Positions 1-15,566 of a DNA stretch of 32,000 nt are shown here, one piece after another. The stretch covers positions 3,188,575-3,220,574 of the forward strand of contig NC_015717.1 of NCBI RefSeq assembly GCF_000253295.1. The letters are read 5' to 3'. This DNA comes from Hyphomicrobium sp. MC1 (lineage in GTDB: Bacteria; Pseudomonadota; Alphaproteobacteria; Rhizobiales; Hyphomicrobiaceae). The translations under genes and the position numbers were made by a program. The notes under the pieces were generated by a model. That model was not told where the DNA came from, ran no database searches, and saw only the letters and a program-made list of their open reading frames with translations. The stretch's first letter is position 1. Every line of letters starts with the position of its first letter.

Positions 1-437
1 ATGCGCTCGCCAGCGATCTCACGCTCGAACTGTGCAAACGACAGCAGCATGTTGAGTGTTAGGCGCCCCATCGACGTCGTCGTGTTGAACTGCTGAGTCA
101 CCGACACAAACGAAGCGCCATGTGCATCGAATATGTCGACGATCTTGGCAAAGTCCGCCAGAGAGCGGGTCAGCCGGTCGACTTTGTAGACGACAACGAT
201 CTGGGCTTTGCCAGCCTTGATGTCGCCGAGCAGTCGCTGAAGCGCGGGACGTTCCATCGTTCCGCCGGAAAGGCCACCATCGTCATAGAGGTCAGAGACC
301 GCAGTCCAGCCCGCGTGCTTCTGGCTCTTAATGAAAGCTTCACAGGCCTCCCGCTGGGCGTCGAGAGAGTTGAATTCCTTCTCCAGCCCCTCATCCGAGG
401 ACTTGCGGGTGTAGATCGCGCAGCGGACTTTGATCAT
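1..437 (-). CDS. Large serine recombinase, N-terminal resolvase-type catalytic domain (gene continues beyond the left window edge)
   Basis: Absent from the ORF track because it is open at the window edge. The reverse complement from ATG 437-435 reads MIKVRCAIYTRKSSDEGLEKEFNSLDAQREACEAFIKSQKHAGWTAVSDLYDDGGLSGGTMERPALQRLLGDIKAGKAQIVVVYKVDRLTRSLADFAKIVDIFDAHGASFVSVTQQFNTTTSMGRLTLNMLLSFAQFEREIAGER. This has the YxRxSS nucleophile region, DGGxSG and VDRLxR motifs typical of serine recombinases. ATGA start/stop overlap with the upstream DUF2924 frame. Confidence 0.9.
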   Translation of the reverse strand, partial: MIKVRCAIYTRKSSDEGLEKEFNSLDAQREACEAFIKSQKHAGWTAVSDLYDDGGLSGGTMERPALQRLLGDIKAGKAQIVVVYKVDRLTRSLADFAKIVDIFDAHGASFVSVTQQFNTTTSMGRLTLNMLLSFAQFEREIAGER

Positions 438-918
438 TCGGGACGCCTCACCTGAGTAGAGGACGCGGCATCGCTCGCGCCGCTGGTCAACCCGAAGAAG
501 CGCGGTCCAGACCAGCGGGCGCCCGTGATTTCGCGGGCGACGACCGACAATGATGCATAGCGCTGTCCCCGCCATTCGACGCCATCGTCCAAGATGATGA
601 CGGTATGCGTCTGCCCGTGCCATTCCCGGATCAGGCGGTACCGCCTTGACGAACGGGCCGCCGGCGGCTTCTGCTCAAGAGATCTTCCGAAGTCGAGGAC
701 TGAAGCTTGCGAAGTGTGCCTTTCGCCAATCCGCCATGTGCCAGCTCTTGGAGCCTGTAGGTGATCCCACGTAGCAGGATATCGCGGCTCAGGCGTTTGG
801 GTGGCGACGTCTGATAGAGACGTCGCCACTCACTGCGCAATGCATCGATCGTAAGGCTCTCGAGCCCCACGATCTCTGCGGCTAAGTCCAGCGACGGCTT
901 TGCCATTTCAGCGGCCAT
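434..918 (-). pseudogene. DUF2924-family protein, disrupted by a single-base frameshift
   Basis: The N-terminal half is in ORF 631..918(-): MAKPSLDLAAEIVGLESLTIDALRSEWRRLYQTSPPKRLSRDILLRGITYRLQELAHGGL. The C-terminal half is in ORF 434..829(-): RLIREWHGQTHTVIILDDGVEWRGQRYASLSVVAREITGARWSGPRFFGL. The frames join at minus-strand GGT ACC|GCC TGA (642-631). One extra C would give the family motif GTRLIREW. Confidence 0.75.
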
Positions 919-1258
919 GACGGGAAACGATGCGATACCGCCGCAACTCCCCGTCGGATTTCGAGGATGTCAGAGCGAGTCCGAGTTTCTTCTTGACTGT
1001 TCCCGCGAGGAAGCCTCGGACACTGTGCTGTTGCCACTCAGTCGCTTGCATCATGTCGGGGATGGTCGCGCCGTTGCGCTCCCTCAACAGCGACAGGATG
1101 CGCTCCTGCTTTGTGCTGCGCGCTGGTGTGTCAGGCTGTCCTGTAGGTGCTGCCGCTGGTTTTGGCTGTTTCAGATTGCGCTTCGATTTGCTCGCTTTGC
1201 TGGCTGGCGGAGTTGCTCGCGTGGCTTTGGTCAAGGAATGAACTTCAACTGCGGTCAT
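908..1258 (-). CDS. DUF3489-family small DNA-binding-like protein
   Basis: From the internal Met (MTAVEVHSL...) the C-terminus reads KQERILSLLRERNGATIPDMMQATEWQQHSVRGFLAGTVKKKLGLALTSSKSDGELRRYRIV, matching the DUF3489 pattern as I recall it. It is the first gene of the DUF3489-DUF2924-recombinase triad. The start is chosen at 1258 rather than 1318 and is uncertain. Confidence 0.75.
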   Translation of the reverse strand: MTAVEVHSLTKATRATPPASKASKSKRNLKQPKPAAAPTGQPDTPARSTKQERILSLLRERNGATIPDMMQATEWQQHSVRGFLAGTVKKKLGLALTSSKSDGELRRYRIVSRHGR

Positions 1259-1701
1259 GTTGGGCTCCGTGGCTATTGGCGCGCCCCGTTGGCGCTCCCA
1301 CTGCCCGAAGCCCCGCAACCGCGAGGCGACCTCTCAGATATTCAGCAAGCCAAAGGGCCGTCCGCCGATGTCCCTATACCAATGCGTCCTTTGCGACAGA
1401 AGTCGAGGTCTGATTTCGCTGTGGCGGCCAATCTCGGAATATCAGTTAAACAACTCTGTCAGTGCATTGGGTTTTAAGTTCGGTCGACAGACAGATTAAG
1501 ACGGCATCAGCCGACCGCATTGTCGCCGATAGCTGGGAAGCGCCGGTAATCCCCGTCCACACGTTGGAAAATCACGTTGATGACGATTGGCAGGTCCCCA
1601 TAAGGTCCAATATCCACGCAATCCATATGTGTCGGGGAGGATGCCGTCGACCAACATCATTATGATCTTCTGCAGTTTTGATTCTTTCATAGGCCATATT
1701 G

Positions 1702-3648
1702 ATGCGGCTCAAACGCGCCGAGATTTTTAATTACCGATCCATCAGACAGGCGACGATCGAATTCGGCGACCAGACCCGGCTGATCGGGGGCAACGGATGC
1801 GGAAAGTCATCCGTAGTCAAGGCATTGGAATTGTTCTACGCGCCCGCGAAAACAACAGTCTCCCGCGATGACTTCTTCGGCCGCGATGAAGCGAACGAAA
1901 TTGAGATCGCGCTCACCTTCCATGAGTTCTCCGACCAAGAGAAAGAGACGTTTAAGGGTCACATCACTGAGTCCGGGGAGCTAAGCGTTAGCCGCGTTTT
2001 CTCGGCGAATGGCGGCAAAAACAACGGCAAATACCACGGTGTGCAGCTCGCGTACCCGGCCTTCCAGGCTGTGCGCGCTGCCGGCAAGGCAGCAGAGAAA
2101 TCTGAGGCATACAAGGCGCTGCTTCCCGAACATCCTGACCTAGACAAGGGTGCGAAAACAGCAGCGGCAATTGAGGCTGCGATGGCCGCCTGGGAAGCTG
2201 CAAATCCTGAGAAATGCCAAGCGCTGCGAGACGACGGCCAGTTCTTCGGCTTTGAGGGCGTCGCACAGGGAAAGCTGTCCTCGTCAACCGCTTTCGTGTT
2301 CGTACCTGCCGTCAGGGACGCAGCGCAGGATGTCGCTGAAGGGAAAGGGACCCCTATTACCTTACTGATGGATCTGATCGTCCGGTCGGCAATAGAGGCG
2401 CGACCGGAGATCAAGGAGTTCAGGGCTAAGGTTGAAAGCGAATACCAGGCACTCACTGATCCTGCGAAGCTCACTGAGCTCGGCGGGCTTGCTACTACGT
2501 TGTCTGGCACGCTGAGCACCTACTATCCGGAAACTTCCGTAGAACTGGATTGGCTCCAACGGGATGCGCTGAAAGTGCCGCTGCCGAATGCAGCAATCCG
2601 GTTAAATGATGATGGCTTCTCTACGGCCGTCGACAGGACTGGGCACGGCTTGCAACGCGCGCTGATCTTAACTTTGCTCCAGCATTTGGCGACGGCCAGC
2701 ATGAAGTCGGAAGACGTCACTGAGGAGATGAGCGGAACTCCCACCGAACCCGATCTCATCCTCGCCATCGAGGAGCCCGAGGTATATCAGCACCCAACAA
2801 AGCAAAGGCATTTTGCTCGCGTCTTGGATTTGCTGAGCAGCGGCAAGCTAGCCGGTATCGGCAAGCGCATCCAAGTTATCTACTGTTCCCACTCGCCGAT
2901 GTTTGTTGCTATGGAGCAGTTCGACCAGGTGCGTCTGATGAGGCGCATTAAGAAGGAGGGGCAGAGAGAATCGGTCCCACATGCCGTTTCCCTTGCCGAT
3001 GTCGCGACGGAACTAGACGCCGCACATCAGGCGGAGGGCAAGTTCAGCGCAGATCGTCTGCGGAGTAGACTCCACATCATCGATATAGGTGTGGCCGAAG
3101 GGTTCTTCTCCACCGTCACCGTGCTTGTAGAAGGGCCGAGCGATCGGGCAGCGCTCCTCGCCGCGGCTAGATACCTCGGCAAAGATTTGGAGCAGAACGA
3201 AGTAGCTGTCGTCTCCGTCAATGGTAAAGCCAACATTGACCGTCCTGCCGCTGTTTTCCGCGGGCTTGGAATTCCGGTCTACGCTGTATGGGACTGTGAT
3301 GAGGGCACCAATGATTTTCGGCCCGAGACCAACAAGGCACTTCAACGCCTGTTCAAGACGCCCGAGGCCGAAATTGTCGACGCTGTTGACCGCATTACGA
3401 CGAATTATGCTTGCTTCCGCGTCAAGCTTGAGGAAACGCTGAAGGCAGAAATCGGCGCTGAATTTTACCGCAAAAAGATGGATGAGCTTAAGACTAAGTT
3501 CGAAATCACAAAAGATAACGATGCGCAGAAATCGCCTGTCGTGATGTTCGATCTTATCGTTGAAGCCGCTAATGCGGGCAATGTTCCCAAGACCTTGGTC
3601 GCAATCGTCGAGGCGGTGATTGCACTTCGTCCTACACCAGAAATATGA
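1702..3648 (+). CDS. OLD-family ATP-dependent nuclease (N-terminal ABC-type ATPase plus C-terminal Toprim)
   Basis: Walker A GGNGCGKS (1786-1809). ABC-signature-like GHGLQRAL. Walker B-like LILAIEEPEVYQHP. Toprim motifs VLVEGPSD (3121-3144) and WDCDEG (3289-3306). The track starts at TTG 1699 and the adjacent ATG 1702 is equally possible. Confidence 0.85.
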   Translation: MRLKRAEIFNYRSIRQATIEFGDQTRLIGGNGCGKSSVVKALELFYAPAKTTVSRDDFFGRDEANEIEIALTFHEFSDQEKETFKGHITESGELSVSRVFSANGGKNNGKYHGVQLAYPAFQAVRAAGKAAEKSEAYKALLPEHPDLDKGAKTAAAIEAAMAAWEAANPEKCQALRDDGQFFGFEGVAQGKLSSSTAFVFVPAVRDAAQDVAEGKGTPITLLMDLIVRSAIEARPEIKEFRAKVESEYQALTDPAKLTELGGLATTLSGTLSTYYPETSVELDWLQRDALKVPLPNAAIRLNDDGFSTAVDRTGHGLQRALILTLLQHLATASMKSEDVTEEMSGTPTEPDLILAIEEPEVYQHPTKQRHFARVLDLLSSGKLAGIGKRIQVIYCSHSPMFVAMEQFDQVRLMRRIKKEGQRESVPHAVSLADVATELDAAHQAEGKFSADRLRSRLHIIDIGVAEGFFSTVTVLVEGPSDRAALLAAARYLGKDLEQNEVAVVSVNGKANIDRPAAVFRGLGIPVYAVWDCDEGTNDFRPETNKALQRLFKTPEAEIVDAVDRITTNYACFRVKLEETLKAEIGAEFYRKKMDELKTKFEITKDNDAQKSPVVMFDLIVEAANAGNVPKTLVAIVEAVIALRPTPEI

Positions 3649-3697
3649 GCTGCATTCCCCTTATGTAGCGGAAGTCATTGGCGGAGGGTAATTAGTC

Positions 3698-5107
3698 ATG
3701 AATGAAATTATCTGCCCGCACTGCGGGAAGGCGTTCAAGATCGATGAGTCCGGATACGCCGATATCCTGAAGCAAGTTCACGACAGCGAGTTCGAGAAGC
3801 AGCTGCACGAACGGCTTGAATTGGCCGAGCAAGACAAACGAAGCGCCGTCGAACTCGCCCGAACTAAGGTCGCCAGTGAATTTCAGAACACATCCGCAGC
3901 CAAAGACGCTGAAATTCAGGAACTGAAGTCAAAGCTCGAGGCCGGTGAGGTTGCGCGGCAGCTCGCCGTGACTCGGGCGCTAAGTGCCGTGGAAAAGGAG
4001 CGCGATTCGCTAGCGAACGAACTTACCCAGGCCAAGAATGACAAGAAAGCCGCTTCCGAGCTGGGCGAGGCAAGATTAGCGAACGAATTGCAGAAGGCAG
4101 TCAGTACGAAGGACGCGGAGATCCAGGACCTGAAGGCCAAGCTTGCCGCCGCCGAAGTTGCCCACAAGCTCGCGATCAACGAAGCTGTCAATGTAGTTGA
4201 AAAGGAGCGCGACGTACTGAAGAGCGGCGTTGAGCGAGCGGAGCTTGAGAAGCAACTCGCAGAAAAGGCGCTGAAAGACAAGTACGAAACGCAGATAAAG
4301 GATCGGGATGACGCGATCGAGCGCCTCCGGGACATGAAGGCTCGACTGTCGACCAAGATGGTTGGCGAAACCCTTGAGCAGCACTGCGAAACTGAGTTCA
4401 ACCGCATTCGCGCGACGGCGTTTCCGAGGGCATATTTCGAGAAGGACAACGACACGCGGACTGGCAGCAAGGGCGATTACATCTTTCGTGACTCGGACGA
4501 GTCTGCCACTGAGATCATATCGATTATGTTCGAGATGAAGAACGAGAGTGATCGCACCACAACGAAGAACAAGAACGAGGACTTTTTAAAGGAACTCGAC
4601 AAGGATCGCACCGAGAAGGGTTGTGAATATGCGGTACTGGTCTCCCTGCTCGAACCTGACAGTGAACTTTACAACACCGGGATCGTTGACGTTTTTCATC
4701 GCTATCCGAAGATGTACGTCGTCCGACCGCAGTTCTTTATTCCAATCATCACGCTTCTGCGGAACGCCGCAATAAACTCCCTCAAGTACAAGTCGGAGCT
4801 GGCGCTCATCAGGGCGCAGAATATAGATATCACTAACTTCGAAACCCAGCTTGAGACATTCAAGACTGGATTCGCAAAGAACTATGACCTCGCGTCCAAG
4901 CGTTTCCAAACGGCGATCGACGAGATCGACAAATCGATCGACCATCTACAGAAGACCAGGGATGCCCTAATTGGCGCCGATCGGAACCTTCGTCTTGCGA
5001 ACGACAAGGCGCAGGACGTTACGCTCAAGAAGCTTACTCGAGGCAACCCGACGATGGCAGCCAAGTTTGCCGATCTTAAGGACAATGGCCCCTCAGATGC
5101 TGGATGA
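3698..5107 (+). CDS. DUF2130-family protein: N-terminal CPHC Zn-ribbon-like motif, long coiled coil with a 69-aa tandem duplication, C-terminal PD-(D/E)xK-like nuclease fold
   Basis: N-terminus [27 protein letters not shown] and the overall layout match DUF2130 as I recall it. Putative nuclease triad is D260 (GDYIF) and E279-x-K281 (MFEMK). GGAGGG Shine-Dalgarno lies 8-13 nt upstream of the ATG. The gene starts 49 nt after the OLD gene. Confidence 0.8.
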
Positions 5108-5117
5108 GGCAGGTCAT

Positions 5118-5137
5118 ACGCGGCCAAGGCGCGTTTT
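5118..5137 (+). terminator. Possible small intrinsic terminator after the DUF2130 gene
   Basis: ACGCG (5118-5122) pairs with CGCGT (5130-5134) around a 7-nt loop, followed by a TTT/TTTT run, 11 nt after the stop codon. The stem is only 5 bp, so support is weak. Confidence 0.3.
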
Positions 5138-5315
5138 GACCCTGCAATTCCGCATATGGGCGTCGACGTTCCTGCGGGCTATCTGGCTTCCGGCCCGCCG
5201 CATCCGAATGAAATTCCTTCGGACCCAAGCCTCCGCTAACAAGTGCACGAGACGGTCAGCCATCTCGATGTCTGGTTCTCTACGTCGCAGAATAGAACTT
5301 ACGGCACAGCGTGAT

Positions 5316-6704
5316 TCATCTGCTAGGCAGTTGACGGGCCTTGAGTTGAGAGGGGTATGCCACCTGATCTCCTGCGTCCCGATCAGTGCGATCTTCGCTG
5401 ATCACCTTAAGGGGTATGGCGCCGGCAACAGTTGATCGCTCAATGGCAATATCTCCTCCGACGCTTCCAAGAAACCCCCGCAGCTTGTCGAGATCTCCAC
5501 ACCACTGAACTTCGACATCACGGTCTCGCGAGCGGTCGCGCGGTACACCCTGAGGCGCAAATGCGACAATCCGCATTTGCAATCTCTCGGCTTCAGGCGA
5601 ACCATTGATCTCAAGGCCGAAGCCCGGCGTATTCGCGTGCCGCATCACGACGGCGTCGCCCTTGGCGAAAGCTGTCGCCATGCCTTCTTGTACTTCATAG
5701 CCTAGGCTTGACAGGCCTTGGAGGATCGCCTTTCGGCGCGCTTCAGCGGCCAACCGGTTAATCTCTGATGTTACGAGAACCTTCGCGGACGCGATCAACT
5801 CATTGGCCTGCGCTGCATTTGAGGCAGTGATGGCGGTCTTTAGGTTGGCAGCGAGCGCTCTCGCGGCTTCGGAGTTGAAGCGCCGAACTTCAGCTAATTG
5901 CTCGCGAAGTTTCGCGACTAGATAGTTGTTCTCTCGAGCCACACGAGTAGCGTCAGCCAAATCCGCGACGAGGCTATCGGTTAGCAATCGCTTTCGAGTC
6001 TGTGAAGGTTCGGCACCGATTGCTGTTATCCGCTGCTCAAAGATTTCCCGGTTAGGGCCACCTAAGGAACCGAGTTCAACGATAAAGTTGTCGATACGTT
6101 TGAGGCGCTCGTCTTCATGGTTTTCGAGATTTTCGACACGCCATTTAGCGAAACTTGTTGAACGCTCGCCGGCCGCAAGTCTGGCTGCTATCTCACTCGT
6201 CCGCTCCTGCGCCACACTGGTCGCACTATTGCCGGCGAGAACGGCGTAGGCATCAGCAAATGCACGATCCGTATCCGCATTGTTTTCATTTCCCGCAGCA
6301 ATTTCCTCAAGTAATGAGAGCAGCTCTGTCGACACATCCTTTCCAGCGGTCCGTAGCTTGGAAATCACTGCGTTAGCCGCCGCGCAACGCCTGCGCTTTC
6401 TTGTCCGCTTCGCCGCTGCCCTCTCAATCGCTGCGGCCAGCCGAGCCTGCGCATCTTCCTCTAAGAACTTGATTTCTTCCGGTACTGCTTTTTGAAGATC
6501 GAGGAATGCGTTCGCATCCAAAAGCGCGCGGAGTTCATCCCGCCGCTTGTGAACGGCGGCAATGTCCGCTTCGTTAATTCCGTTGGCGCGTTTCCCAGAT
6601 TCCGTCCAGCCCTCTATCGCGGCGTCAAGCCGAGCGAGATGCTGCTCGCAGATAGCTAGAATTTCCTCTCTCGTTACAATCCGAACGACTTTTGGACCGC
6701 TCAT
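5316..6704 (-). CDS. Hypothetical 462-aa protein, predominantly alpha-helical/coiled-coil with a small C-terminal domain; fourth gene of the candidate system
   Basis: The start is taken at MSGPKVVRIVTREEIL (ATG 6704-6702), which forms an ATGA overlap with the stop (6703-6701) of the giant gene. A GGGAGAG Shine-Dalgarno lies just upstream. The 65 residues the track adds upstream would overlap the giant gene. Ala/Glu/Arg/Leu-rich heptad-like sequence with no domain I can name. Confidence 0.7.
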   Translation of the reverse strand: MSGPKVVRIVTREEILAICEQHLARLDAAIEGWTESGKRANGINEADIAAVHKRRDELRALLDANAFLDLQKAVPEEIKFLEEDAQARLAAAIERAAAKRTRKRRRCAAANAVISKLRTAGKDVSTELLSLLEEIAAGNENNADTDRAFADAYAVLAGNSATSVAQERTSEIAARLAAGERSTSFAKWRVENLENHEDERLKRIDNFIVELGSLGGPNREIFEQRITAIGAEPSQTRKRLLTDSLVADLADATRVARENNYLVAKLREQLAEVRRFNSEAARALAANLKTAITASNAAQANELIASAKVLVTSEINRLAAEARRKAILQGLSSLGYEVQEGMATAFAKGDAVVMRHANTPGFGLEINGSPEAERLQMRIVAFAPQGVPRDRSRDRDVEVQWCGDLDKLRGFLGSVGGDIAIERSTVAGAIPLKVISEDRTDRDAGDQVAYPSQLKARQLPSR

Positions 6705-9700
6705 GCCGCTCTCCCGCCTGGATTGCTCAGCGCCGACGCGATAGCCGCGCGGAGGCGCTCCTGCTCGTAGGTTCGACGCGCATACCATTCGGCACACGAG
6801 ATTCGATGAAGTGAACGCACCGTGTTCGAGAGAATTCGCGGCCGCCATAACTCGCGCGCTCTGGCGCGGGCAAGAATTTGGTGTTGGGGTGCATCGCACT
6901 CGATGCCAATGCCATAGAGACCGGTGTTTGGGTTCACAATAGCTAGGTCGACGTTGAATGCGTCGTCTTGGTCACCCGGGACGGGATCATAACCGATTTC
7001 TCTGATGAAGCGCTCTACCGAGCGCTTGAATGCATCGCCTAAATCGTGATCCCGCCCCTCCGTCCGCTTGCCCTCTGTTACCATCCGTCGACAGAGTGAT
7101 CGCGCGGCATCTAGATCCTGTGCGGTAATGGCTCGACCGAATTCCAGATATCCTTGGAGGTAGTCACGCTCAGTCATTGGCGGCCGATGCGTTGACAACA
7201 TGTCGGACACGTCGCCAATTGGGATTGAAGTCGCAACAATGACTTTTCTCTTGGCTCGCGTGATCGCGACATTCAAGCGACGTCGGCCGCCATGCTGGCC
7301 AAGCACACCAAAGTTTCGGCGAAACGAGCCATGCTCGTTGCGCCCAAACGTCGTTGAGAAGATGATTACATCGCGCTCGTCGCCTTGCACATTTTCGACG
7401 TTCTTGACGAAGAAACCAATGTCTTCGTGATCCTGTGTCCGCTGCTGCTCTTCGATATAGGCCCCTCGGAACGCCTCGTCTTCTTCTGCTCGTTCTTCAA
7501 GGCGGTCCTCGATCAAATCGGCCTGCTTACGATTGAATGTTACGACTCCAATAGAGGGGCGTCGTTGCTGGGGTTCCGACCAATAGTCTGCGAGGAGGCC
7601 AACGATGCGATCTGCTTCCTCCAAGTTGGTTTGCTTGGAATAGGTGCCGTTAACGTGTACGATTTCGATCGGGCACTGTTGCAGCACAACCGAGTCGGGG
7701 TGTTGGATAGGGACGTTCAGCCGATTGCCGTAAAATGCTGCGTTAGAGAAGGCGATGAGCTCTCGGTAGGCGGACCGATAGTGAACTTCGAGCATGGTTG
7801 TCGGTAGCGACACTCGAGCCAGATTTAGGAGATCTGGACAGTCCTTGATCTCACGGCGGTTCCAGGTTTCCTCTAATGCTTCGCGGGCGCTTTCACTTAG
7901 CGCTGTATCATCTACATCAACGTCAAGATCTTCCTCATCGTCTTCAATGCGCCCCGCAAAGAACGACGTCGGCGGCATCTGTTTTTCATCGCCACTCACA
8001 ACCGCAATTCCCGCCCTAAAAAGCGTCGGAAGTGCATACTCGATGGGCATCTGCGATGCCTCGTCATAGACGACAACATCGAACAGTCCGGGCGTCAGTG
8101 GGAAGATTCGGCTTGCCACATCTGGATTCACCAGCCAAACTGGCCGCAATTCAAAAAGTCCGAGATCCCGTCCGTTTTCAATGAGATCGCGAATACTAGA
8201 TCGCAACACACCGTTCGCCGCGCGTAGCCGCGTAATACTTGTCCATGTCTGCTGCGAGCCCTGAACCTGATTGTTGTCGACGCCATCGGCCAAAAGGCGA
8301 CTATTGAGGACGCGGATTTTTTGATCGGCATCAGCGAGTGATTGAATTTTTGTTTCTATCTCGCCCTGGTCCATGAGCAACGATGGTTCACGTTCCTCTA
8401 GCGCAGCTTTCAACGCTAGGCGGGGCTCACGAGCGATGATCCGCCGAACCATGGCGGTAAGTTCGCTTGTTGGTAGGATCTCTAGCGGTCCCTCAACTTC
8501 ACGCAAACACTCGAACACTGCAAGGACCATCCCGTCTTGCCCTGCCACGCGCCGACGGAACTCTTGAAACGCCTCCACCGTCGGCAAGGCTCCAGCAATC
8601 GGTCCAACCCGTGCCGTGTTCGACTTGCCCATTGCAATTGCTGATTGACAGGACGACGACCACTTTTCTTCGAACCAGCTCCCAAGGGCCTCAAGTGCGG
8701 CCGCGCTATCCGCTCGTGCTTTGCACCGCTTGATTGCCTGTGCCACCTCTTCAAAGAATATCGGTAACGCATGGTTCTTGGTTGCCTCAAATGCCATATT
8801 CGGCTGAGGTCCTTGAGCGAGCATATCGGCGACCGCAGCGACGTTTCCAAGCGACTGGCGTAGGTCCGCGGTTAGACGTCGAATGCTGCTGATTGGTAGA
8901 TCGCCGACCGTAGGATTATCAATGTCAAGATCTTCAAGGATCCTCTGCAGCCGCTGCTTAACAGCTCGTAGCTCGCGCTCAAATCGTATCGCCGCGTGCA
9001 ATAGCGCAACGTCATGTTTTTCTCCCAGCTTATGATCGCGGAGAAAGCGCCTGAGCTGCCTGAGCGCGGTGTACCTAAAAGGGCTCAGTCGGCTGATAAG
9101 CGACGTCGAGGCAAGCACGCGGCCGGATGCGCGCTCAAGTTTGGAAAAGATTGTCCCGTCAAGGGAGAGGAGAACGCGCTGGAGCTCGACCGGCGGTGCG
9201 GAAGAGGCCTCCTTGTCCAATATCGTAAGAAGTTCGTCGAGTTCTAAGATCAAGCCTCTTCCATCCTCCTTTTCAGTCAGGACGGCGGAGACGGGCCGGA
9301 ACAAGGAAATCCAGCGCGCCAGATTCTCTCGCTGTTCGCCGCGCTGCGCGGCGACCACATCAGTTGAGTCGGAGAGCCACGTGAGCGTGTCGCCGGGGTT
9401 CTCGACTTCAAAAACGGCGGATCTCTCTGCAATTATATGTACGCGCATTGCTTCGACGGAGGCAAAGCGTTCGAAGTCCTCGCTAAACGCGCGCACCGTC
9501 GCAGGATCGGCTTGAAATATCTTTAGTACGCGCAGAGGGCTTCGTTCAAATTTCGAGGGTAGCCAATAGCGCGCCAGCGAGGCACACGCCTCCTCAATAG
9601 CAGTCCGCTGTGCGGGAGGTAGAGATTGGAGAAGGCGACGAAGTTTTGGTACATCAATTGGCGGTACCCCAGCGGCTTCTAGATCAACCAGTTCGCTAAG

Positions 9701-12700
9701 CAGTGATCTGTAACTAGAACCCGTTTGTTCGTCCACGCGATGCACCGCGTCGTGACGGCGATCGAGCTGTCCCTCTAACTCTTCGATCAAAGTCGCTAGT
9801 TGTTTCCTCCGGTTGTTTACGCTGCTTATGCCTGATGGAGGATCGCGGCGTAAATTGAAGACCTGATCGCGGATCATTTGAAGGACCGGCTGCCGGTCTT
9901 TATTTATGTCCGTTATCATCACGCAACGGTCTTGCAGCCCCTCCTTCTCAAGACGCTTTCTCACGACATCTATTGCCGCAAATTTCTGGCAGACGACTAG
10001 TACGCTCTTCTTTCGACCTATAGCGTCGCCAATAACGTTGACGATGGTTTGACTCTTGCCGGTCCCTGGAGGACCTTCGAGCAATAAGCCAGGGCTATGC
10101 CGCGCCTTGAATACGGCGTCCTCTTGCGACGGATCACTCGCCGCACTGAAGAAACGATCTACTTCACGGGGCGCGGTGTGGGTGATCTCCTGTTGCACAG
10201 GATCGGAGATACGAAGTAGCGCGGCCAATGAGGTGGAATCAGGCGCTCTCGACTTCAGGCGTCTCAAATCATCGACAATGGCCTGGCCGATATAAGAGAG
10301 ATGAAAGAGAACAGCTGATGCCGTGACCCGTCGCGCGAAAGGAGGAAGTTGAACATCTCGAGCGGGCAGTTTCGAAATCTGGCGACCCGTTGATGTTGCT
10401 AGGGTCGCAAATGCATCCATTATGTCCGGTGGATTTAGAGTTGATCGACCGAGAAGTTCGTCGATTAGCTCTCGCCACCTGGCCATTTCCTCGATTCCGA
10501 CGATGCCCTCGAGTGCAGGATTAATTCGAACGTCCTCGCGTTCTCGATCGAAGGCGATCGTCACATCACCCCGAACGCCTGTTGCGACATCCACGCGCAC
10601 TGGCCAAAGAAGGACCGGTGCTATCCGAGGCTTGGTTGTCGATCTTCCATCGCGAGCTACAAGAAATGGAAATCCCAGATAAAGCCCGTCAATACCCGTA
10701 TCTCGCTTGTATATGACCGCGCTCTGAACAAGGTGCCGCAATCGGCTTTCTGGCGAGCCCTCAGAAATTGCGAATATAGCTGGGTCAACACTAAGTTTCT
10801 GATCTGAACGTCGCAGAACATGGGAAACAATATCGTCTGGACTTCGCCGTTGTGTACCTAGCTCCGAGACGTCAATGCGCGGTGTCGTCTTACCAATCGT
10901 CATCCTAACCAGCGGCCCTCGCGCTAGCGAAACCGTTACCTTCTTCTCAAAATATTCGAGAATACGCTGGTAGTATTCGTGCTTCGGCGGCTCGAGCCAA
11001 TGTTCCGCAGGAATTGCTAGAAGCGCTAACGCCCGAGCAATTGGCAGACGCCGCTCTAAGCGGAGCTGTTCGACCCACTCGTCCGCGCGAGAAATATTAC
11101 AGCGCGCTAGATCTCCGGTCCGCTTCCGCACCTCTGCGATAAGGTTGCTGCGGGAAAGCTCAAGAGATTGGTCCGCGATCATGGGATCAAATCCCAAAAT
11201 GCCGGCGCGTTGTGCCAGTTGTGCGGCCTCTTCGATGACTTCATCCCTGCTTCGGAAGAACCCGGTATCCGCGGCTAGAAGGATGATTAAATCTTCTTCC
11301 GAAGACTGGCGTCGTTCCATCAGGCTCGCGATCCCGGCATGTTCGGTGTCGGGAAAAAGCCGCCGCTTCGCATCCCATTCGGATGCGAGTTGTGATCGCG
11401 ATGTGGAGAGGAGATAGGCGCGTAACGCAGCTTCTTCCAATTGGATTTCTAGAAGCCTTGCCTTTTCCCGTACAGCGGTGGCGCGTACTCTAAGACGGGT
11501 TAGCCATACTTCCGAGCCCAGAACTTCAAGTATGTCCGGTGCGGGACCATCAATCAGCTCGTAACCGAGTTCACTATTCGTGCGAAGCCAGGGCGGGTTG
11601 ATGATGTCGCCCCGGAACGTGAGGGGCATATTTTCGTTGAGGAGCTTAAGAGCAAGAGACAGTCGAAAGTCATCATGGAGACCATCTCGTCGTGCGACCT
11701 GACGCAACGCCGATGTCGTGCCGCTGGGCAATCCGACCTCAGCGGACCAACTCGCAACTTCGCCGCGCATCAGTAGGTCTCGGGCCTCATCCCAATACTC
11801 GGAGCCAGCGGCTTCGAGGGCGAACCGTATAGGACTCGTATGTGTTTTGCCGCCGAGAACAATCGTTGGGAGTTCAGCAGATTCGCTCTGGCCGACATTT
11901 ACCTCGGTGGGCAGCTCAACGGGCTCCCCGTCGAGACAGGCTTTGAGTTGTTTCCAACCCCACCGTTGGGACTGATCTCGTATCAGCAGACCCCGGAGAA
12001 GAGTTCGAAGTTCGCCCGGCAGGTCCTCTGGAATCGGGACGCCGGTCGCAAGAGCATGCATCAAGAAAACGCGGGGGTTGATCCCATCGAAACAGCGACC
12101 TTCCGTAATCTGTTCGAGCAAGATCATGCCTAAGCTCCACCAGTCCGAGGCGGAAGCAACGGCACCGATGACTGCTTCCGGCGCGGTATATCGCGTCAAT
12201 TCAAGTGGAGCGACGATATCGAGATCGAATTCGGACAAGCGTGCGGACTCAAACCCCGTGATAACGAGATCGAGCGGATCCTCGGCTCGAATGAGAATGT
12301 TAGGCGGCCTTAAATTCCGATGGCGAAGGCCGGCTTCAGCGAAATCCCTGAGTGCTGTTCCGATCTCCAAGGCAAGCGTACGAACGGCTTCAATCTGACA
12401 GCCTGACGGAGACCGGTCTGCGAGCGAACCCGTCTCCATGTTCTCGCACACATCGTAGGCGCGATCACCCCAACGACCGGTTGTTATGAGCTCGGGAATA
12501 TGATCGCGTGGGAGACGTCGAAGCAATGCATAAACGGATGGATCGGGTTCAGAGCCTATTGCATAGAGTGTGAGGACAGCCGACTTATTCCTATCTGCTT
12601 TGGTTGCAATGAACCGTTCGACTGCGGGCCCTGTCGTCTCTAAGCGACGTTCTAGATGCCAACCATCGATCGTCGCTGGCGCCGGCATGTCTTCATCAGA

Positions 12701-13021
12701 ATCCGGACTAGCTTCATCTGCTTCGTAATGCGATTGAGCTTCATTGAAGCCGCTCGGTGTTACAACATCGGCGTGACACACCGGGCAAATGAAATCCCCC
12801 GCTGTGATCGGATGCCCATTTGGACAGGTTGGGCCTGATGAAGTTGTATTTGCTGCCGGCACACTCGTGAGTGGTTCCGGACGCCAGCCAGTTGCCCGAA
12901 TGGGCTCCTCGGAGATCAGCCAAGGCTCGAAACCTCTTTCAATGCAACCTTGGCATAGAACTTCGCCGAGGCCGCGCTCGGTTTCGCAACTCGGGCACCA
13001 TCGCATCCGACTTAGCGACAA
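6701..13021 (-). CDS. Giant 2106-aa multidomain protein: two Zn-ribbons, pseudokinase, DUF4011-like region, Upf1-like SF1 helicase (AAA_11/AAA_12 type) with a large insertion, C-terminal REase (MTES_1575/DUF559-like) domain
   Basis: Zn-ribbons: CPSC...CQGC (aa 9-26) and CPNGH...CPVC (aa 66-82). Kinase fold aa ~118-365: HRNLRPPN at nt 12322-12299, YTAPE, SDWWSLGMILLEQITG. GFPFLV...APVLLWPV is DUF4011-like (aa ~780-810). Walker A GPPGTGKS at nt 10075-10052. Motif II DEASQ at nt 8065-8051. Further helicase motifs: SGDEKQMPP, HYRS, VTFNRKQ, VENVQGDERDVIIF, LNVAITRAKRK. C-terminal VDLAI...GIECDAPQH...RISCAEWY (aa ~2020-2080). TTG start at 13021 is preceded by GGAGGA with a 6-nt spacer. Alternative ATG at 13006. 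Confidence 0.9.
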   Translation of the reverse strand: MSLSRMRWCPSCETERGLGEVLCQGCIERGFEPWLISEEPIRATGWRPEPLTSVPAANTTSSGPTCPNGHPITAGDFICPVCHADVVTPSGFNEAQSHYEADEASPDSDEDMPAPATIDGWHLERRLETTGPAVERFIATKADRNKSAVLTLYAIGSEPDPSVYALLRRLPRDHIPELITTGRWGDRAYDVCENMETGSLADRSPSGCQIEAVRTLALEIGTALRDFAEAGLRHRNLRPPNILIRAEDPLDLVITGFESARLSEFDLDIVAPLELTRYTAPEAVIGAVASASDWWSLGMILLEQITEGRCFDGINPRVFLMHALATGVPIPEDLPGELRTLLRGLLIRDQSQRWGWKQLKACLDGEPVELPTEVNVGQSESAELPTIVLGGKTHTSPIRFALEAAGSEYWDEARDLLMRGEVASWSAEVGLPSGTTSALRQVARRDGLHDDFRLSLALKLLNENMPLTFRGDIINPPWLRTNSELGYELIDGPAPDILEVLGSEVWLTRLRVRATAVREKARLLEIQLEEAALRAYLLSTSRSQLASEWDAKRRLFPDTEHAGIASLMERRQSSEEDLIILLAADTGFFRSRDEVIEEAAQLAQRAGILGFDPMIADQSLELSRSNLIAEVRKRTGDLARCNISRADEWVEQLRLERRLPIARALALLAIPAEHWLEPPKHEYYQRILEYFEKKVTVSLARGPLVRMTIGKTTPRIDVSELGTQRRSPDDIVSHVLRRSDQKLSVDPAIFAISEGSPESRLRHLVQSAVIYKRDTGIDGLYLGFPFLVARDGRSTTKPRIAPVLLWPVRVDVATGVRGDVTIAFDREREDVRINPALEGIVGIEEMARWRELIDELLGRSTLNPPDIMDAFATLATSTGRQISKLPARDVQLPPFARRVTASAVLFHLSYIGQAIVDDLRRLKSRAPDSTSLAALLRISDPVQQEITHTAPREVDRFFSAASDPSQEDAVFKARHSPGLLLEGPPGTGKSQTIVNVIGDAIGRKKSVLVVCQKFAAIDVVRKRLEKEGLQDRCVMITDINKDRQPVLQMIRDQVFNLRRDPPSGISSVNNRRKQLATLIEELEGQLDRRHDAVHRVDEQTGSSYRSLLSELVDLEAAGVPPIDVPKLRRLLQSLPPAQRTAIEEACASLARYWLPSKFERSPLRVLKIFQADPATVRAFSEDFERFASVEAMRVHIIAERSAVFEVENPGDTLTWLSDSTDVVAAQRGEQRENLARWISLFRPVSAVLTEKEDGRGLILELDELLTILDKEASSAPPVELQRVLLSLDGTIFSKLERASGRVLASTSLISRLSPFRYTALRQLRRFLRDHKLGEKHDVALLHAAIRFERELRAVKQRLQRILEDLDIDNPTVGDLPISSIRRLTADLRQSLGNVAAVADMLAQGPQPNMAFEATKNHALPIFFEEVAQAIKRCKARADSAAALEALGSWFEEKWSSSCQSAIAMGKSNTARVGPIAGALPTVEAFQEFRRRVAGQDGMVLAVFECLREVEGPLEILPTSELTAMVRRIIAREPRLALKAALEEREPSLLMDQGEIETKIQSLADADQKIRVLNSRLLADGVDNNQVQGSQQTWTSITRLRAANGVLRSSIRDLIENGRDLGLFELRPVWLVNPDVASRIFPLTPGLFDVVVYDEASQMPIEYALPTLFRAGIAVVSGDEKQMPPTSFFAGRIEDDEEDLDVDVDDTALSESAREALEETWNRREIKDCPDLLNLARVSLPTTMLEVHYRSAYRELIAFSNAAFYGNRLNVPIQHPDSVVLQQCPIEIVHVNGTYSKQTNLEEADRIVGLLADYWSEPQQRRPSIGVVTFNRKQADLIEDRLEERAEEDEAFRGAYIEEQQRTQDHEDIGFFVKNVENVQGDERDVIIFSTTFGRNEHGSFRRNFGVLGQHGGRRRLNVAITRAKRKVIVATSIPIGDVSDMLSTHRPPMTERDYLQGYLEFGRAITAQDLDAARSLCRRMVTEGKRTEGRDHDLGDAFKRSVERFIREIGYDPVPGDQDDAFNVDLAIVNPNTGLYGIGIECDAPQHQILARARARELWRPRILSNTVRSLHRISCAEWYARRTYEQERLRAAIASALSNPGGRAA

Positions 13022-13668
13022 CTTTTATCCTCCGATGTTGCGACCCGGTGGCCATCGGCTTCGAGCAACTCACGAAGACGCGCGAGATCGCCGCGGTCGG
13101 GAATGCCAGCGAACCACACGGCACCACCCTCTTCGAAGGCTATGTCTAGTCTGCGGTCTTGTTCGCCTCGCGGGCCATCGTAATTGGCAAAGCGGCGTCG
13201 GCCGAGCTGCGTTAAAGGAAATAGACGTTGATTGTCACTACCGCGCAGACGGCGCGTTTGCGCCGTTGACCGTACGAAAGGATCGGTCACGATTGCATCG
13301 ATAAGGCCCGACAGCCGCTCCAAATGCGGGCCAATTGCTTCAAAAGAATAGCCTGAGAAAACCAAAATGTCCGCGGAGCATTCTAGTCTCAGAAGGCGGA
13401 GCAAAGCCTCAAGCGCCGCGACCTGATCGAACGGCTCACCTCCGGAGATCGTAATGCCATCTGCCTGCGACAACCAAGGTTTGATTGATGCAAGAACTTC
13501 GTCAATGGCCACGGTTGCCTTCGCGAATGTCCAAGTGTCCGCGGAAATACAGCCCGAACACCGAATTGAGCATCCCTGGAACCAGATGCCAATCCGCTTT
13601 CCAGGACCGAGGGCCGTGACCGGAAAATGGAGCCGTGAAAGACCGACAGCGATAGGTATGTCACTCAT
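13012..13668 (-). CDS. Small radical SAM protein of the NrdG/PflA/QueE-like (4Fe-4S single-cluster, activase-like) type
   Basis: GIWFQGCSIRCSGC gives C33-x3-C37-x2-C40 (nt 13572-13549). ITISGGEP is a SAM-binding motif (aa 72-79). Only 218 aa. ATGA overlap with the upstream AAA+ gene and a 10-nt overlap with the giant gene start. Confidence 0.85.
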   Translation of the reverse strand: MSDIPIAVGLSRLHFPVTALGPGKRIGIWFQGCSIRCSGCISADTWTFAKATVAIDEVLASIKPWLSQADGITISGGEPFDQVAALEALLRLLRLECSADILVFSGYSFEAIGPHLERLSGLIDAIVTDPFVRSTAQTRRLRGSDNQRLFPLTQLGRRRFANYDGPRGEQDRRLDIAFEEGGAVWFAGIPDRGDLARLRELLEADGHRVATSEDKSCR

Positions 13669-15509
13669 GATGATCTCGACAGTCGCAGCGAAGTCACTGG
13701 CCCTTTTTCCAAATCGGCAATTGTGAGCCGACCGTCCCGCCCGTCCCCAAAATCGAACAGTGAACGTGCAAGCGGATTCACAAGATGGCGTTCGACCTGA
13801 TTTCGGATGCCACGGCCGCCGTTGGATAGATCTTCAAGGCATAACGCGGCGAGCTTCTGACGTGCGATATCACTCATCGAGATCTGGATGCCGCTTTGCG
13901 CAAGATCGGCCAAGGTGGAAACTACCATCGAATCAAAAATCTGAATCGCAACCTCCGGGCGGATAAAGTCGAAGACTATAATGTTTTCTCCAATCCGATT
14001 GAGGATTTCTGGCCGGTTTAATGTGATCTTAAAATGACGATCAATCTCTCTCCTGACGCCAGCCCTAACTTCATCGAATGGTTCGCTCGGCGAGACATTT
14101 AAGGTGCGTCCGCCGGATGGGTCGTCGCGGTAGATTCCGAGATTAGAAGTGAAGACGATAAACGCCTCTGAAAAATAGACTCGATCACCTCGCCCGGATG
14201 TGAGTACGCCGTCGTCGAGCACTTGCAGGAATTTATCGAGAATGCGGGGATGCGCTTTCTCGATTTCATCGAACAGCACCACGCAAAATGGTCGCTCGCG
14301 AATGGCGTTCGTTAATTCTCCGCCAACGTCATAGCCGACATAGCCGGGTGGGGCGCCTATCAATCTTTGATCCGAATGCTCTGCGCCAAATTCAGACATG
14401 TCAAAACGAATATACGCACTCTCATCACCGAAGAGCAGAGAGGTTATCGTTTTGGCGAGTTCAGTTTTTCCCACGCCAGTGGGACCGGCCAAGAAAACGA
14501 CACCCCGTGGACGTCCTCCTCGGCGTGGAGCCCCAACTCCCGTAACCGCACGCTTAATAATGTCCAGCACATGCGTGATGGCGTGGTCCTGGCCCTTGAC
14601 CCGCTCGCGAATAAAATCAGGAGCCGACTCGATCTTGCGTCTATCGATCTTGCGCCAAGGGTCTTCAGTCACTCCCACTTTGTAACGTCGCACGGCATCA
14701 CCGATACGGTCGAACGTGACCCCCTCGCCGCGTCCCAATTGCGCAATTGCATTGAGATCCGTCAGCAGCAATCCGTCCGTCATATCCACGAACGCATCTG
14801 CAGCTGACCGAATTGCATCCGAAGTAGCTCCGGCCCCTCCCGACATTGTTTTCACGAGTGTCTGACCGAGGGATTTTCGCACTCGATGGTCGGGCTTTGG
14901 GATCGGTATGTGCCGAAGGCGCGCGTTATTAAGTAGGAACCAATCTGGAAGATCGCCCTCCTTGTCGACGATCCAAAGGATAGAATTGAAGAATGGTGTT
15001 CGCTGTGCGCCAATTGGCTTGGGTCGAGCTGTATGGCACAGCACTTGTGCTCGCAGGAACAGCTGATGTTCATGCGGCTGGAGGAATTCATTCCGTACAA
15101 TTAATCGCGATGCAAAATCGACGATGAGCGCGATTGGTCCATCGGGAAAAGAGACAATCTTTTCGAGTGTTGCCGAGAGTAAATCGAGGCCCCCGGGGGC
15201 TGCACCATCGGCAGGCGTTAAGCCGAGTTGGGTCAGAAGAGTTTCGCTACCAGCGGGCGATCCCAATAAAGGCTCGGCCAGCCCGAATCCCGTCGTAGGC
15301 TCGTATGTGACTACACGTCGATAACCCGCGGCGGTGAGTTCCGTTGCGACAAGGGTCAGCAGCGGTACTGCAGCGATAGCGCCCGGAGTGGTTTCGGTCG
15401 TCTGAAGATCCCGAATGTTACCTGTCAGGACAAACTGGCTCTTCAGCGGAAGGAAACGCTGGAGATCTCTAAGCCAACGCGGCTTTTCGTAGATGTCGAC
15501 GTCAGCCAT
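13665..15509 (-). CDS. AAA+ ATPase: ClpA/ClpB D2-type module (AAA_2 plus D2-small-like C-terminus) preceded by a degenerate, P-loop-less AAA-like N-terminal module
   Basis: Active module: VFLAGPTGVGKTELAKT (Walker A nt 14486-14463), IGAPPGYVGYDVGGELT, VVLFDEIEKAHP (Walker B), FIVFTSNLG, RPEILNRIG. N-terminal half: FVLTGNIRDL in the Walker A position, ALIVDFASRL Walker B-like, RLRHIPIPKPD. ATG at 15509 is preceded by GAGG and a G-run. The TTG at 15557 in the track is less likely. Confidence 0.85.
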   Translation of the reverse strand: MADVDIYEKPRWLRDLQRFLPLKSQFVLTGNIRDLQTTETTPGAIAAVPLLTLVATELTAAGYRRVVTYEPTTGFGLAEPLLGSPAGSETLLTQLGLTPADGAAPGGLDLLSATLEKIVSFPDGPIALIVDFASRLIVRNEFLQPHEHQLFLRAQVLCHTARPKPIGAQRTPFFNSILWIVDKEGDLPDWFLLNNARLRHIPIPKPDHRVRKSLGQTLVKTMSGGAGATSDAIRSAADAFVDMTDGLLLTDLNAIAQLGRGEGVTFDRIGDAVRRYKVGVTEDPWRKIDRRKIESAPDFIRERVKGQDHAITHVLDIIKRAVTGVGAPRRGGRPRGVVFLAGPTGVGKTELAKTITSLLFGDESAYIRFDMSEFGAEHSDQRLIGAPPGYVGYDVGGELTNAIRERPFCVVLFDEIEKAHPRILDKFLQVLDDGVLTSGRGDRVYFSEAFIVFTSNLGIYRDDPSGGRTLNVSPSEPFDEVRAGVRREIDRHFKITLNRPEILNRIGENIIVFDFIRPEVAIQIFDSMVVSTLADLAQSGIQISMSDIARQKLAALCLEDLSNGGRGIRNQVERHLVNPLARSLFDFGDGRDGRLTIADLEKGPVTSLRLSRSS

Positions 15510-15566
15510 CCCCCAAACCTCAGCGACCAATACCCCACAATGCTCATAGGCGAGCAAAGGATATCA

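Follow-up and report, generated by a model that had tools for sequence, protein, structure and literature searches.

Enzymes of the NrdG/PflA type belong to the radical S-adenosylmethionine (SAM) superfamily. Their only role known to us is to activate oxygen-sensitive glycyl-radical enzymes of anaerobic metabolism, and a locus that encodes such an enzyme with none of these substrates beside it raises the question of what its radical is used for. The locus lies in a 32,000-nucleotide (nt) stretch of the Hyphomicrobium sp. MC1 genome, referred to here as the window, in which a gene at 13012-13668 on the minus strand encodes a radical SAM protein of 218 amino acids (aa), of NrdG/PflA (Fer4_12) type by translation and Pfam. 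A preliminary description of the window had proposed an activase-like enzyme without a canonical substrate and with a link to its operon partners, and this has held, co-occurrence with the partners being strict in both directions. The enzyme is inherited only with its three partners, in a mobile four-gene cassette of which it is an obligate part, and it is neither the activase of any canonical glycyl-radical enzyme nor QueE. Judged by its motifs and its place in a tree, it belongs to a distinct family that is most closely related to NrdG and PflA, the activases of glycyl-radical enzymes. The reading favoured here, to which we give a probability of roughly one in two, is that it would perform radical chemistry on a protein of the cassette, most likely on the head of the fourth gene product.

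Identity of the radical SAM enzyme

The C33-x3-C37-x2-C40 and GGEP motifs, which had been noted in the preliminary description, are confirmed by translation, and Pfam assigns the protein to Fer4_12 with an E-value of 2.6e-25. The codons of the cysteine motif (CSIRCSGC, 13549-13572, minus strand) specify the predicted [4Fe-4S] ligands and are followed by an invariant I-S42-x-D-T-W, those of G76-G77-E78-P79 (13432-13443, minus strand) specify the SAM-binding GGE motif, and those of L20-G21-P22-G23-K24-R25 (13594-13611, minus strand) specify what the alignment identifies as an activase-type GPGxR loop. Together with the partial triosephosphate isomerase (TIM) barrel fold of an AlphaFold2 (AF2) model (predicted local distance difference test, pLDDT, 84.5; predicted template-modelling score, pTM, 0.84), the CX3CX2C and GGE motifs are those expected of a radical SAM superfamily member. 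Foldseek searches with this model returned PflA as the best match (E 3.7e-07 to 1.1e-05), followed by QueE (2.2e-04) and viperin-like proteins (~0.02), and a profile search against PDB sequences likewise returned PflA (1e-13) and then QueE (5.5e-04). A viperin-like identity was considered and rejected on this weak fold match and on the different size.

In NCBIfam the best match is NrdG (5.3e-22), followed by PflA (3.3e-15), and both are under the curated cut-offs (78.4 bits against 126.1 for NrdG and 56.1 against 231.75 for PflA), as are PFLE_PFLC (33 against 174) and QueE (24 against 300). When 151 genomes of the same phylum were scanned with the NrdG model, three score classes were obtained, with true NrdG at 200-214 bits, the window enzyme and four enzymes of a group designated 'X' at 79-95 bits, and most PflA-like enzymes at 50-68 bits. 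A maximum-likelihood tree of 82 sequences, made by a quick search and supported by the Shimodaira-Hasegawa-like approximate likelihood ratio test (SH-aLRT) alone, places the cassette enzymes, the 'X' group and NrdG on one side and the PflA-like enzymes on the other (SH-aLRT 93). The window protein is found deep among the cassette sequences, outside the NrdG clade and apart from the PflA-like enzymes. NrdG is the nearest clade in this tree and forms its own 100% clade, sampled narrowly by 8 gammaproteobacterial-type sequences, on a long branch whose position is unsure. Phylogenetic placement had been suggested as a check on the preliminary description, and no firm clustering within the NrdG clade was found.

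With NrdG the cassette enzyme shares its small size, the GPGxR loop, CX3CX2C followed by xxTW, SGGEP, a D(I/V)xVxxGY strand and a C-terminal RGSxNQ, but it has an extra C-terminal region of ~65 aa, which aligns weakly with the PflA C-terminus, and its gene is linked to those of the AAA+, giant and gene 4 proteins instead of to NrdD. The Asn before GPG and the Asn after the third Cys of NrdG are moreover replaced by the invariant Leu20 and Ser42. PflA (PDB 3C8F, 3CB8 and 8FO0) is the best solved-structure match in both sequence and fold; the partial TIM barrel is common to both, and the two have a similar C-terminal P-x-x-x-x-x-R-(L/V)-x-x-x-L-x-x-x-GH-x-V segment, whereas just ~130 residues align, at 24-26% identity. 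QueE, the second-best PDB match, is also a Fer4_12-type radical SAM enzyme with a truncated barrel, but in the alignment E. coli QueE has neither the GPGxR nor the RGSxNQ motif of the cassette enzyme.

In PflA, Asp16 and Asn38 anchor the substrate glycine (PMC9326890). In an alignment with E. coli NrdG, PflA and QueE these two residues fall on Leu20 and Ser42 of the cassette enzyme, so that, of the activase pattern (D/N)GPGxR plus Asn after the third Cys, GPGxR is present and both anchor positions are changed. Because the PflA and NrdG anchors are replaced, the substrate pocket is not that of a known activase, and the enzyme therefore represents a sister family of the activases in which this pocket is altered.

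A search of 5.8 billion proteins recovered 4,949 relatives of the enzyme at E<=0.001, for which automatic annotation gives 'anaerobic ribonucleoside-triphosphate reductase activating protein'; the best 120 of them are all 211-229 aa long, are at least 54% identical and come from Proteobacteria, Acidobacteria and others. Invariant in an alignment of 34 sequences are S-R-x-H-x-P, L-G-P-G-x-R-x-G-x-W-x-Q-G-C-x3-C-x-G-C-x-S-x-D-T-W, T-x-S-G-G-E-P-F-x-Q, L-R-G-S-x-N-Q and a C-terminal G-I-P...D...G. Among 128 distinct cassette orthologues, the three Cys, GGEP, L20, G21, R25, T45, W46, S144, N146 and Q147 are 100% conserved, and S42 is conserved in all except one (127/128). Since the catalytic motifs are conserved to nearly 100% in these orthologues, the family appears to be under selection as a catalyst, and the enzyme is predicted to be catalytically intact.

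The 'X' group consists of other NrdG-like radical SAM proteins of 213-215 aa that are found outside the cassette, for instance in L128 (7639-8280), L125 (7780-8427) and L126 (7686-8330); one lies between lysozyme-like and Zn-ribbon genes, one beside UmuC/UmuD-like genes and one near a small AAA+ gene. Several such orphan branches may exist within the activase-like clade.

The four-gene cassette and its host genomes

The cassette of the window consists, in this order and all co-oriented on the minus strand, of a ClpB-D2-like AAA+ ATPase gene (gene 1, 13665-15509), the radical SAM gene (gene 2), a gene for a giant protein of ~2,100 aa with kinase-like, DUF4011, helicase and nuclease parts (gene 3, 6701-13021 or 6701-13006, depending on the start codon) and a gene for a 462-aa helical protein that begins with MSGPK and has no family match (gene 4, 5316-6704). 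Exact-sequence look-ups found the same four genes, in the same order and in unrelated genomic surroundings, in Burkholderia ubonensis, Pseudomonas sp. and Gilliamella. These three distant loci encode an AAA_2 protein of ~605 aa, a radical SAM enzyme of 214 aa, a Pkinase-DUF4011-AAA_11/12-MTES_1575 protein of ~2,100 aa and a protein of 445-460 aa without a Pfam match. Identity to the window proteins is ~62% for the AAA+ protein, ~55% for the radical SAM enzyme, ~45% for the giant and 25-40% for gene 4.

The linkage was approached from both ends. Among 80 genome loci seeded with the radical SAM enzyme, from taxa that include Chlamydiae, Acidobacteria, Verrucomicrobia, Bacteroidota and Cyanobacteria, nearly every contig of sufficient length has all four genes in order, and a rearranged minority (L065, L070, L078, L087 and L090) keeps the AAA+, radical SAM, gene-4 and kinase parts. 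Conversely, the N-terminus of gene 4 was used to seed 80 metagenome loci; the AAA+, radical SAM and giant genes are present in all 49 that extend at least 8.9 kb upstream, and the radical SAM gene is present in all 3 with at least 7.1 kb upstream. Within the phylum, gene 4 was found in 3 of 401 sampled genomes, too few to inform on co-occurrence at that level. In public data the gene 4 family comprises 1,953 clusters at 50% identity, and at least 128 distinct radical SAM sequences are spread over Proteobacteria, Chlamydiae, Acidobacteria, Verrucomicrobia, Bacteroidota and Cyanobacteria. The enzyme is also carried by eight Rhizobium/Caballeronia megaplasmids, five of them conjugative. It was not found in 50,697 phage records, where just true NrdG occurs, beside NrdD.

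A remote variant of the cassette is seen in Magnetofaba australis (L127, genome G014, 2988-11699), where a gene-4-like protein of 422 aa is followed by AAA+ (37% identical) and radical SAM (34% identical) proteins, a Zn-ribbon protein, a PP2C-like phosphatase and an 879-aa kinase. An MSGPK start is missing from the gene-4-like protein, which is the sole member of its family in the 5.8-billion-protein collection.

As the preliminary description had stated, no NrdD, PFL or queuosine gene is present in the window, and for NrdD and glycyl-radical domains this absence extends to the whole genome. The host genome is a single contig of 4.76 Mb scored 100% complete, and profile searches found no match in it to Gly_radical (PF01228) or NRDD (PF13597), while the same searches gave matches in the expected control genomes. 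It encodes large subunits of the class I/II ribonucleotide reductase (RNR) type and five homologues of haem-copper oxidase subunit I, from which the host would be of aerobe type and would have no need of NrdDG. A genuine QueE is encoded at ~1,868,600-1,870,200, adjoining QueF-II and distant from the window (~1.87 Mb against 3.19-3.22 Mb); it matches TIGR04508 with 337.7 bits against a cut-off of 240 and is of the Cx14CxxC type. The other three Fer4_12 matches in the genome resemble MoaA, a KamA-like protein and PqqE by their N-terminal motifs. The same picture was obtained in most of 50 other carrier genomes, 40 of which have neither PF01228 nor PF13597; of the remaining ten, five Enterobacterales/Orbales genomes have both families and five more have NrdD alone. 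A large and conserved sister family of activases is thus found mostly in aerobes without a glycyl-radical enzyme, and its genes are always linked to those of an unfoldase, of a helicase-nuclease from an established anti-phage lineage and of a protein with a new fold.

Gene 4 as the candidate substrate and other explanations

The AF2 model of the gene 4 protein (pLDDT 90, pTM 0.85) predicts a strand at residues 5-10, within the N-terminal sequence MSGPKVVRIVT, a helical bundle at 12-333, an alpha/beta domain at 335-443 and a disordered tail after 444. Fourteen residues are conserved to at least 98%, among them S2, G3, P4, G335, Y336, G363, E398, C402 and G428, and since ten of the fourteen are located in the N-terminal strand (2-4) or in the C-terminal domain (335-428), the strand and this domain may form one functional 'head'.

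Two sites in the putative head deserve attention. The first is Gly428 (codon 5421-5423, minus strand), which the preliminary description had advanced as a candidate radical site. Its distance of 34 residues from the C-terminus was given correctly; the interval quoted for the surrounding motif, nt 5438-5415, includes Gly428 and spans residues 423-430, not the whole 12-mer IERSTVAGAIPL, which corresponds to residues 421-432. The model puts Gly428 midway along a loop that joins predicted strands 418-423 and 433-435. The glycine is conserved in 97% of 58 orthologues and in at least 90% of 64, the exceptions being one truncated contig and alignment gaps, and it is invariant in 151 of 151 representatives with mutual identity below 50%, where its equivalent is 13-35 residues (median 29) from the C-terminus. 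Around the glycine the consensus reads I-E-(R/K)-A-L-(P/A/G)-(V/I/A/P)-G-x-x-P-(L/V)-K-x-V, and the loop was also recognized by eye in all rearranged or divergent variants, e.g. as ALPPGSG, MPAGSHPVRVV or LAPGEHPVKVI. The lead has therefore survived the conservation check by which it might have been refuted. An invariant hairpin-loop glycine near the C-terminus is nonetheless an unspecific property, because Gly428 is one of four invariant glycines.

The second site is S2-G3-P4-K5 (codons 6690-6701, minus strand), an alternative candidate for recognition or modification. These four residues are 100% conserved in the 58 orthologues and 97-100% conserved across sets; 140 of 150 retrieved representatives start with MSGPK, about 145 of 150 have SGPK after the start residue, and the usual form is MSGPKVVR(I/V)VT. 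In three rearranged loci from Verrucomicrobiota and other lineages (L065, 9449-11020; L078, 4086-5570; L090, 6679-7761), gene 4 has a membrane-helix-like stretch right after MSGPK. Pro22 of the GPGxR loop of the enzyme is replaced by Tyr, Phe or His in L065, L070, L075, L078 and L087, and not in L090. Covariation between the substrate loop of the enzyme and the gene 4 N-terminus was considered and was not used, since P22 to Y/F/H and R142 to L/M track clades and the signal is confounded by phylogeny, both traits following the same clade.

According to the favoured reading, the enzyme would use its 5'-deoxyadenosyl radical on a protein substrate rather than on a metabolite, as its relatives NrdG and PflA do, and this substrate would be a cassette partner. 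Among the three partners, the screening for candidate targets was confined to the gene 4 protein, and the leading candidate is its head, i.e. the SGPK strand together with the C-terminal alpha/beta domain with the Gly428 loop, Cys402 and Gly335-Tyr336, which the ClpB-like motor probably presents or remodels. The outcome might be a backbone radical, cleavage or another modification; a stable glycyl radical of PFL type is unlikely, because most hosts are aerobes. One elaboration, which we regard as distinctly unlikely in its full form, is that a backbone (glycyl-type) radical would be formed at Gly428 or Gly3 on a site presented by the motor, and that site-specific, oxygen-dependent scission or cross-linking in aerobic hosts would then act as a one-shot switch arming or releasing the helicase-nuclease. 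If this elaboration is true, it would provide the first protein-radical chemistry in prokaryotic immunity and the first activase-type enzyme with a substrate outside the glycyl-radical-enzyme fold.

Several observations weigh against the favoured reading. The substrate anchors of PflA are replaced by Leu20 and Ser42, as described above. Four of the 27 glycines of gene 4 are invariant (G3, G335, G363 and G428), and Gly428 could be purely structural. The gene 4 protein has no RVxG[FYW] fingerprint, with no Arg at -3 and a variable +1 residue (A, E, T, V or Q); it gives no Gly_radical match in Pfam at E<=10, even with the C-terminal 144 aa alone; and a Foldseek search of its model against PDB and BFVD returned nothing below E 0.07, with no barrel fold, while a profile search against PDB sequences returned nothing. 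In the remote variant L127, Glu stands at the position aligned with Gly428 (hhalign probability 63%, E 7.3e-05, C-terminal domain), a difference that rests on one sequence because the gene-4-like family has a single member. Furthermore, gene 4 of the three Enterobacterales loci L030, L032 and L064 (Xenorhabdus, Enterobacillus and Providencia) starts with MS(S/A)S(L/V)H instead of MSGPK, and yet these loci keep the radical SAM invariants, save for a conservative D44E in L032. Loci with the enzyme can therefore do without SGPK; the gene 4 proteins of the three loci do keep the Gly428 loop (P-x-G) and the G-Y, Y-G-x-E and W-C motifs. In addition, QueE and other small radical SAM enzymes with a truncated barrel have small-molecule substrates. 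As a side observation, the hosts of L030, L032 and L064 are among the few carriers with real glycyl-radical enzymes.

Another explanation is that the enzyme makes or modifies a nucleotide, a nucleic acid or a second messenger that is used or sensed by the helicase-nuclease; for a modified nucleotide or nucleic acid this had been raised in the preliminary description. We hold it to be unlikely, though worth serious attention. QueE is the second-best match in sequence and fold, the main effector of the cassette is a DNA helicase-nuclease, and the loss of the PflA anchors would suit a non-protein substrate. Radical SAM defence through nucleotides or nucleic acids does exist, as prokaryotic viperins (pVips) represent radical-SAM-dependent defence. 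A further example is Ophion, a defence system that consists of the radical SAM enzyme OpnA, a PHP protein and a phosphoribosyltransferase (PRTase) (bioRxiv 10.1101/2025.09.30.679545). Both are like the cassette in having a radical SAM enzyme within an anti-phage system, which for the cassette is suggested by its genes, but they differ in radical SAM lineage, in partners and in their presumed nucleotide-directed chemistry, Ophion being made of three unrelated genes. The cassette has no PRTase, nucleoside triphosphate (NTP) kinase or PHP partner, and the viperin-like fold matches are weak. The activase-specific GPGxR and the NrdG-type RGSxNQ, which E. coli QueE lacks, are invariant in the cassette enzyme, and protein chemistry is suggested by its strict linkage to an unfoldase and to a protein whose terminus is invariant.

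A narrower version of protein-directed chemistry is that Gly428 itself is a genuine glycyl-radical site installed by the enzyme, which is a subset of the favoured reading and seems to us quite improbable. Its full conservation, its position near the C-terminus and midway along a predicted beta-hairpin loop, like that of the PFL radical glycine, the invariant Cys402 26 residues upstream and the relationship of the enzyme to glycyl-radical activases would all agree with such a role. However, Cys402 is within helix 391-414 of the model and not in a finger loop, oxygen would destroy a glycyl radical in hosts that are mostly aerobes without a glycyl-radical enzyme, and the remote variant has Glu at the aligned position. 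The lack of Arg at -3 and of an aromatic residue at +1, to which the preliminary description had already drawn attention, is borne out and is now joined by the variable +1 residue and by the lack of a Gly_radical match, a barrel fold or a PDB match. As a glycyl-radical site in the known sense, Gly428 is thus not upheld, with neither fingerprint, family match nor fold in gene 4 and with the PflA anchors replaced in the enzyme.

Little probability is likewise given to a sensor or structural role, in which the SAM-bound Fe-S site would report the SAM level, redox state or oxygen, for instance SAM depletion by phage SAM-degrading enzymes, and would gate the nuclease, with turnover being secondary. 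Phage SAM lyases that counter host defences are known; the enzyme is also the second most conserved protein of the cassette, as would be expected of a core regulatory subunit. On the other hand, all catalytic motifs are invariant, beyond the cluster ligands, which argues for real radical chemistry, and no precedent for a sensor is known in the NrdG/PflA clade. Finally, an ordinary NrdG, PflA or QueE with its true partner elsewhere in the genome is scarcely credible, as, despite the automatic annotation of relatives and the best NCBIfam match, it is ruled out by the scores below the cut-offs, the placement outside the NrdG clade, a complete genome without NrdD or a glycyl-radical domain and with its own QueE, and the constant linkage to the cassette.

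The identity of the substrate would point either to protein-radical chemistry in a new fold with a role in immunity or to a new signal or modification made by a radical SAM enzyme. Suitable targets for mutation are C33, C37, C40, L20 and S42 in the enzyme and G3, C402 and G428 in gene 4.

Partner proteins, defence context and flanking genes

The genes of the cassette are tightly packed. The ATG of the radical SAM gene overlaps the AAA+ stop codon in an ATGA at 13665-13668, and the ATG of gene 4 overlaps the stop codon of the giant gene in an ATGA at 6701-6704, the true start of gene 4 being the ATG at 6704, which gives the 462-aa MSGPK protein. For the giant gene the start is either a TTG at 13021, preceded at a distance of 7 nt by GGAGG and overlapping the end of the radical SAM gene, or an ATG at 13006; the radical SAM stop codon is inside the giant gene with the TTG start and 5 nt ahead of the ATG start.

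The AAA+ protein has ~614 aa from the ATG at 15509, its open reading frame staying open up to a TTG at 15557. It matches Pfam AAA_2 (8.2e-43) and ClpB_D2-small (4.4e-06) and contains a Walker A GPTGVGKT, a Walker B DEIEKA, a GYVG pore loop and a D2-small domain, while no family match was found for its N-terminal ~300 aa. The NCBIfam ClpB match (4e-74) is far under the cut-off, and PADLOC gives matches to PDC-M37B and DolB. By its pore loop and Walker motifs it is apparently an active threading ATPase.

The giant protein, characterized by Pfam, PADLOC and NCBIfam, contains in order Zn-ribbons, a kinase-like domain, DUF4011, a superfamily 1 (SF1) helicase (AAA_11/AAA_12, with a long helical insert) and a C-terminal MTES_1575 restriction-endonuclease-like domain. 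In the kinase-like domain (~12250-12330, minus strand; residues ~230-260), HRN and GFE replace the HRD and DFG of active kinases, and in this lineage the domain is probably a pseudokinase; a separate kinase gene is present in rearranged cassette variants. PADLOC matches the giant to PDC-S37 (2.4e-140, residues 962-2098 only) and Hhe (3.5e-66). Its NCBIfam scores of 487.6 bits for ProA (cut-off 1500) and 322.8 bits for Hhe (cut-off 2000) place it outside both families. Hhe, PDC-S37 and the 'anti-phage protein ProA' have the same core of DUF4011, SF1 helicase and C-terminal nuclease, but by their database descriptions they are set apart from the cassette, having no radical SAM enzyme, ClpB-like AAA+ protein or MSGPK protein. 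A defence function against phages or plasmids is most likely for the cassette, given these relationships of its giant and AAA+ proteins, its neighbours in the window, its sparse distribution, its presence on conjugative megaplasmids, its absence from phage records and its place beside a defence hotspot in P. aeruginosa.

Literature searches returned no account of the cassette, its radical SAM family or ProA. Genes PA2725-2728 of Pseudomonas aeruginosa are presumably this cassette. PA2727 is annotated as helicase-like in papers on strain PAO1. In P. aeruginosa the cassette genes are located at the flank of the defence hotspot cDHS1 (PMC10250203). The cassette is core in this species and is thus accessible in standard laboratory strains.

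In the window, the cassette is accompanied by an OLD-family nuclease (AAA_15 plus an OLD-like TOPRIM; PADLOC Old 1e-56) followed by a DUF2130 protein (1699-5107, plus strand) and, to the left, by a trio of resolvase (serine recombinase), DUF2924 and DUF3489 genes (3-1318, minus strand). A catabolic operon with enoyl-CoA hydratase is found at 15980 on the other side of the cassette, and the trio, the OLD nuclease with its DUF2130 neighbour and the cassette together have the appearance of a single mobile defence island whose end lies before this position.

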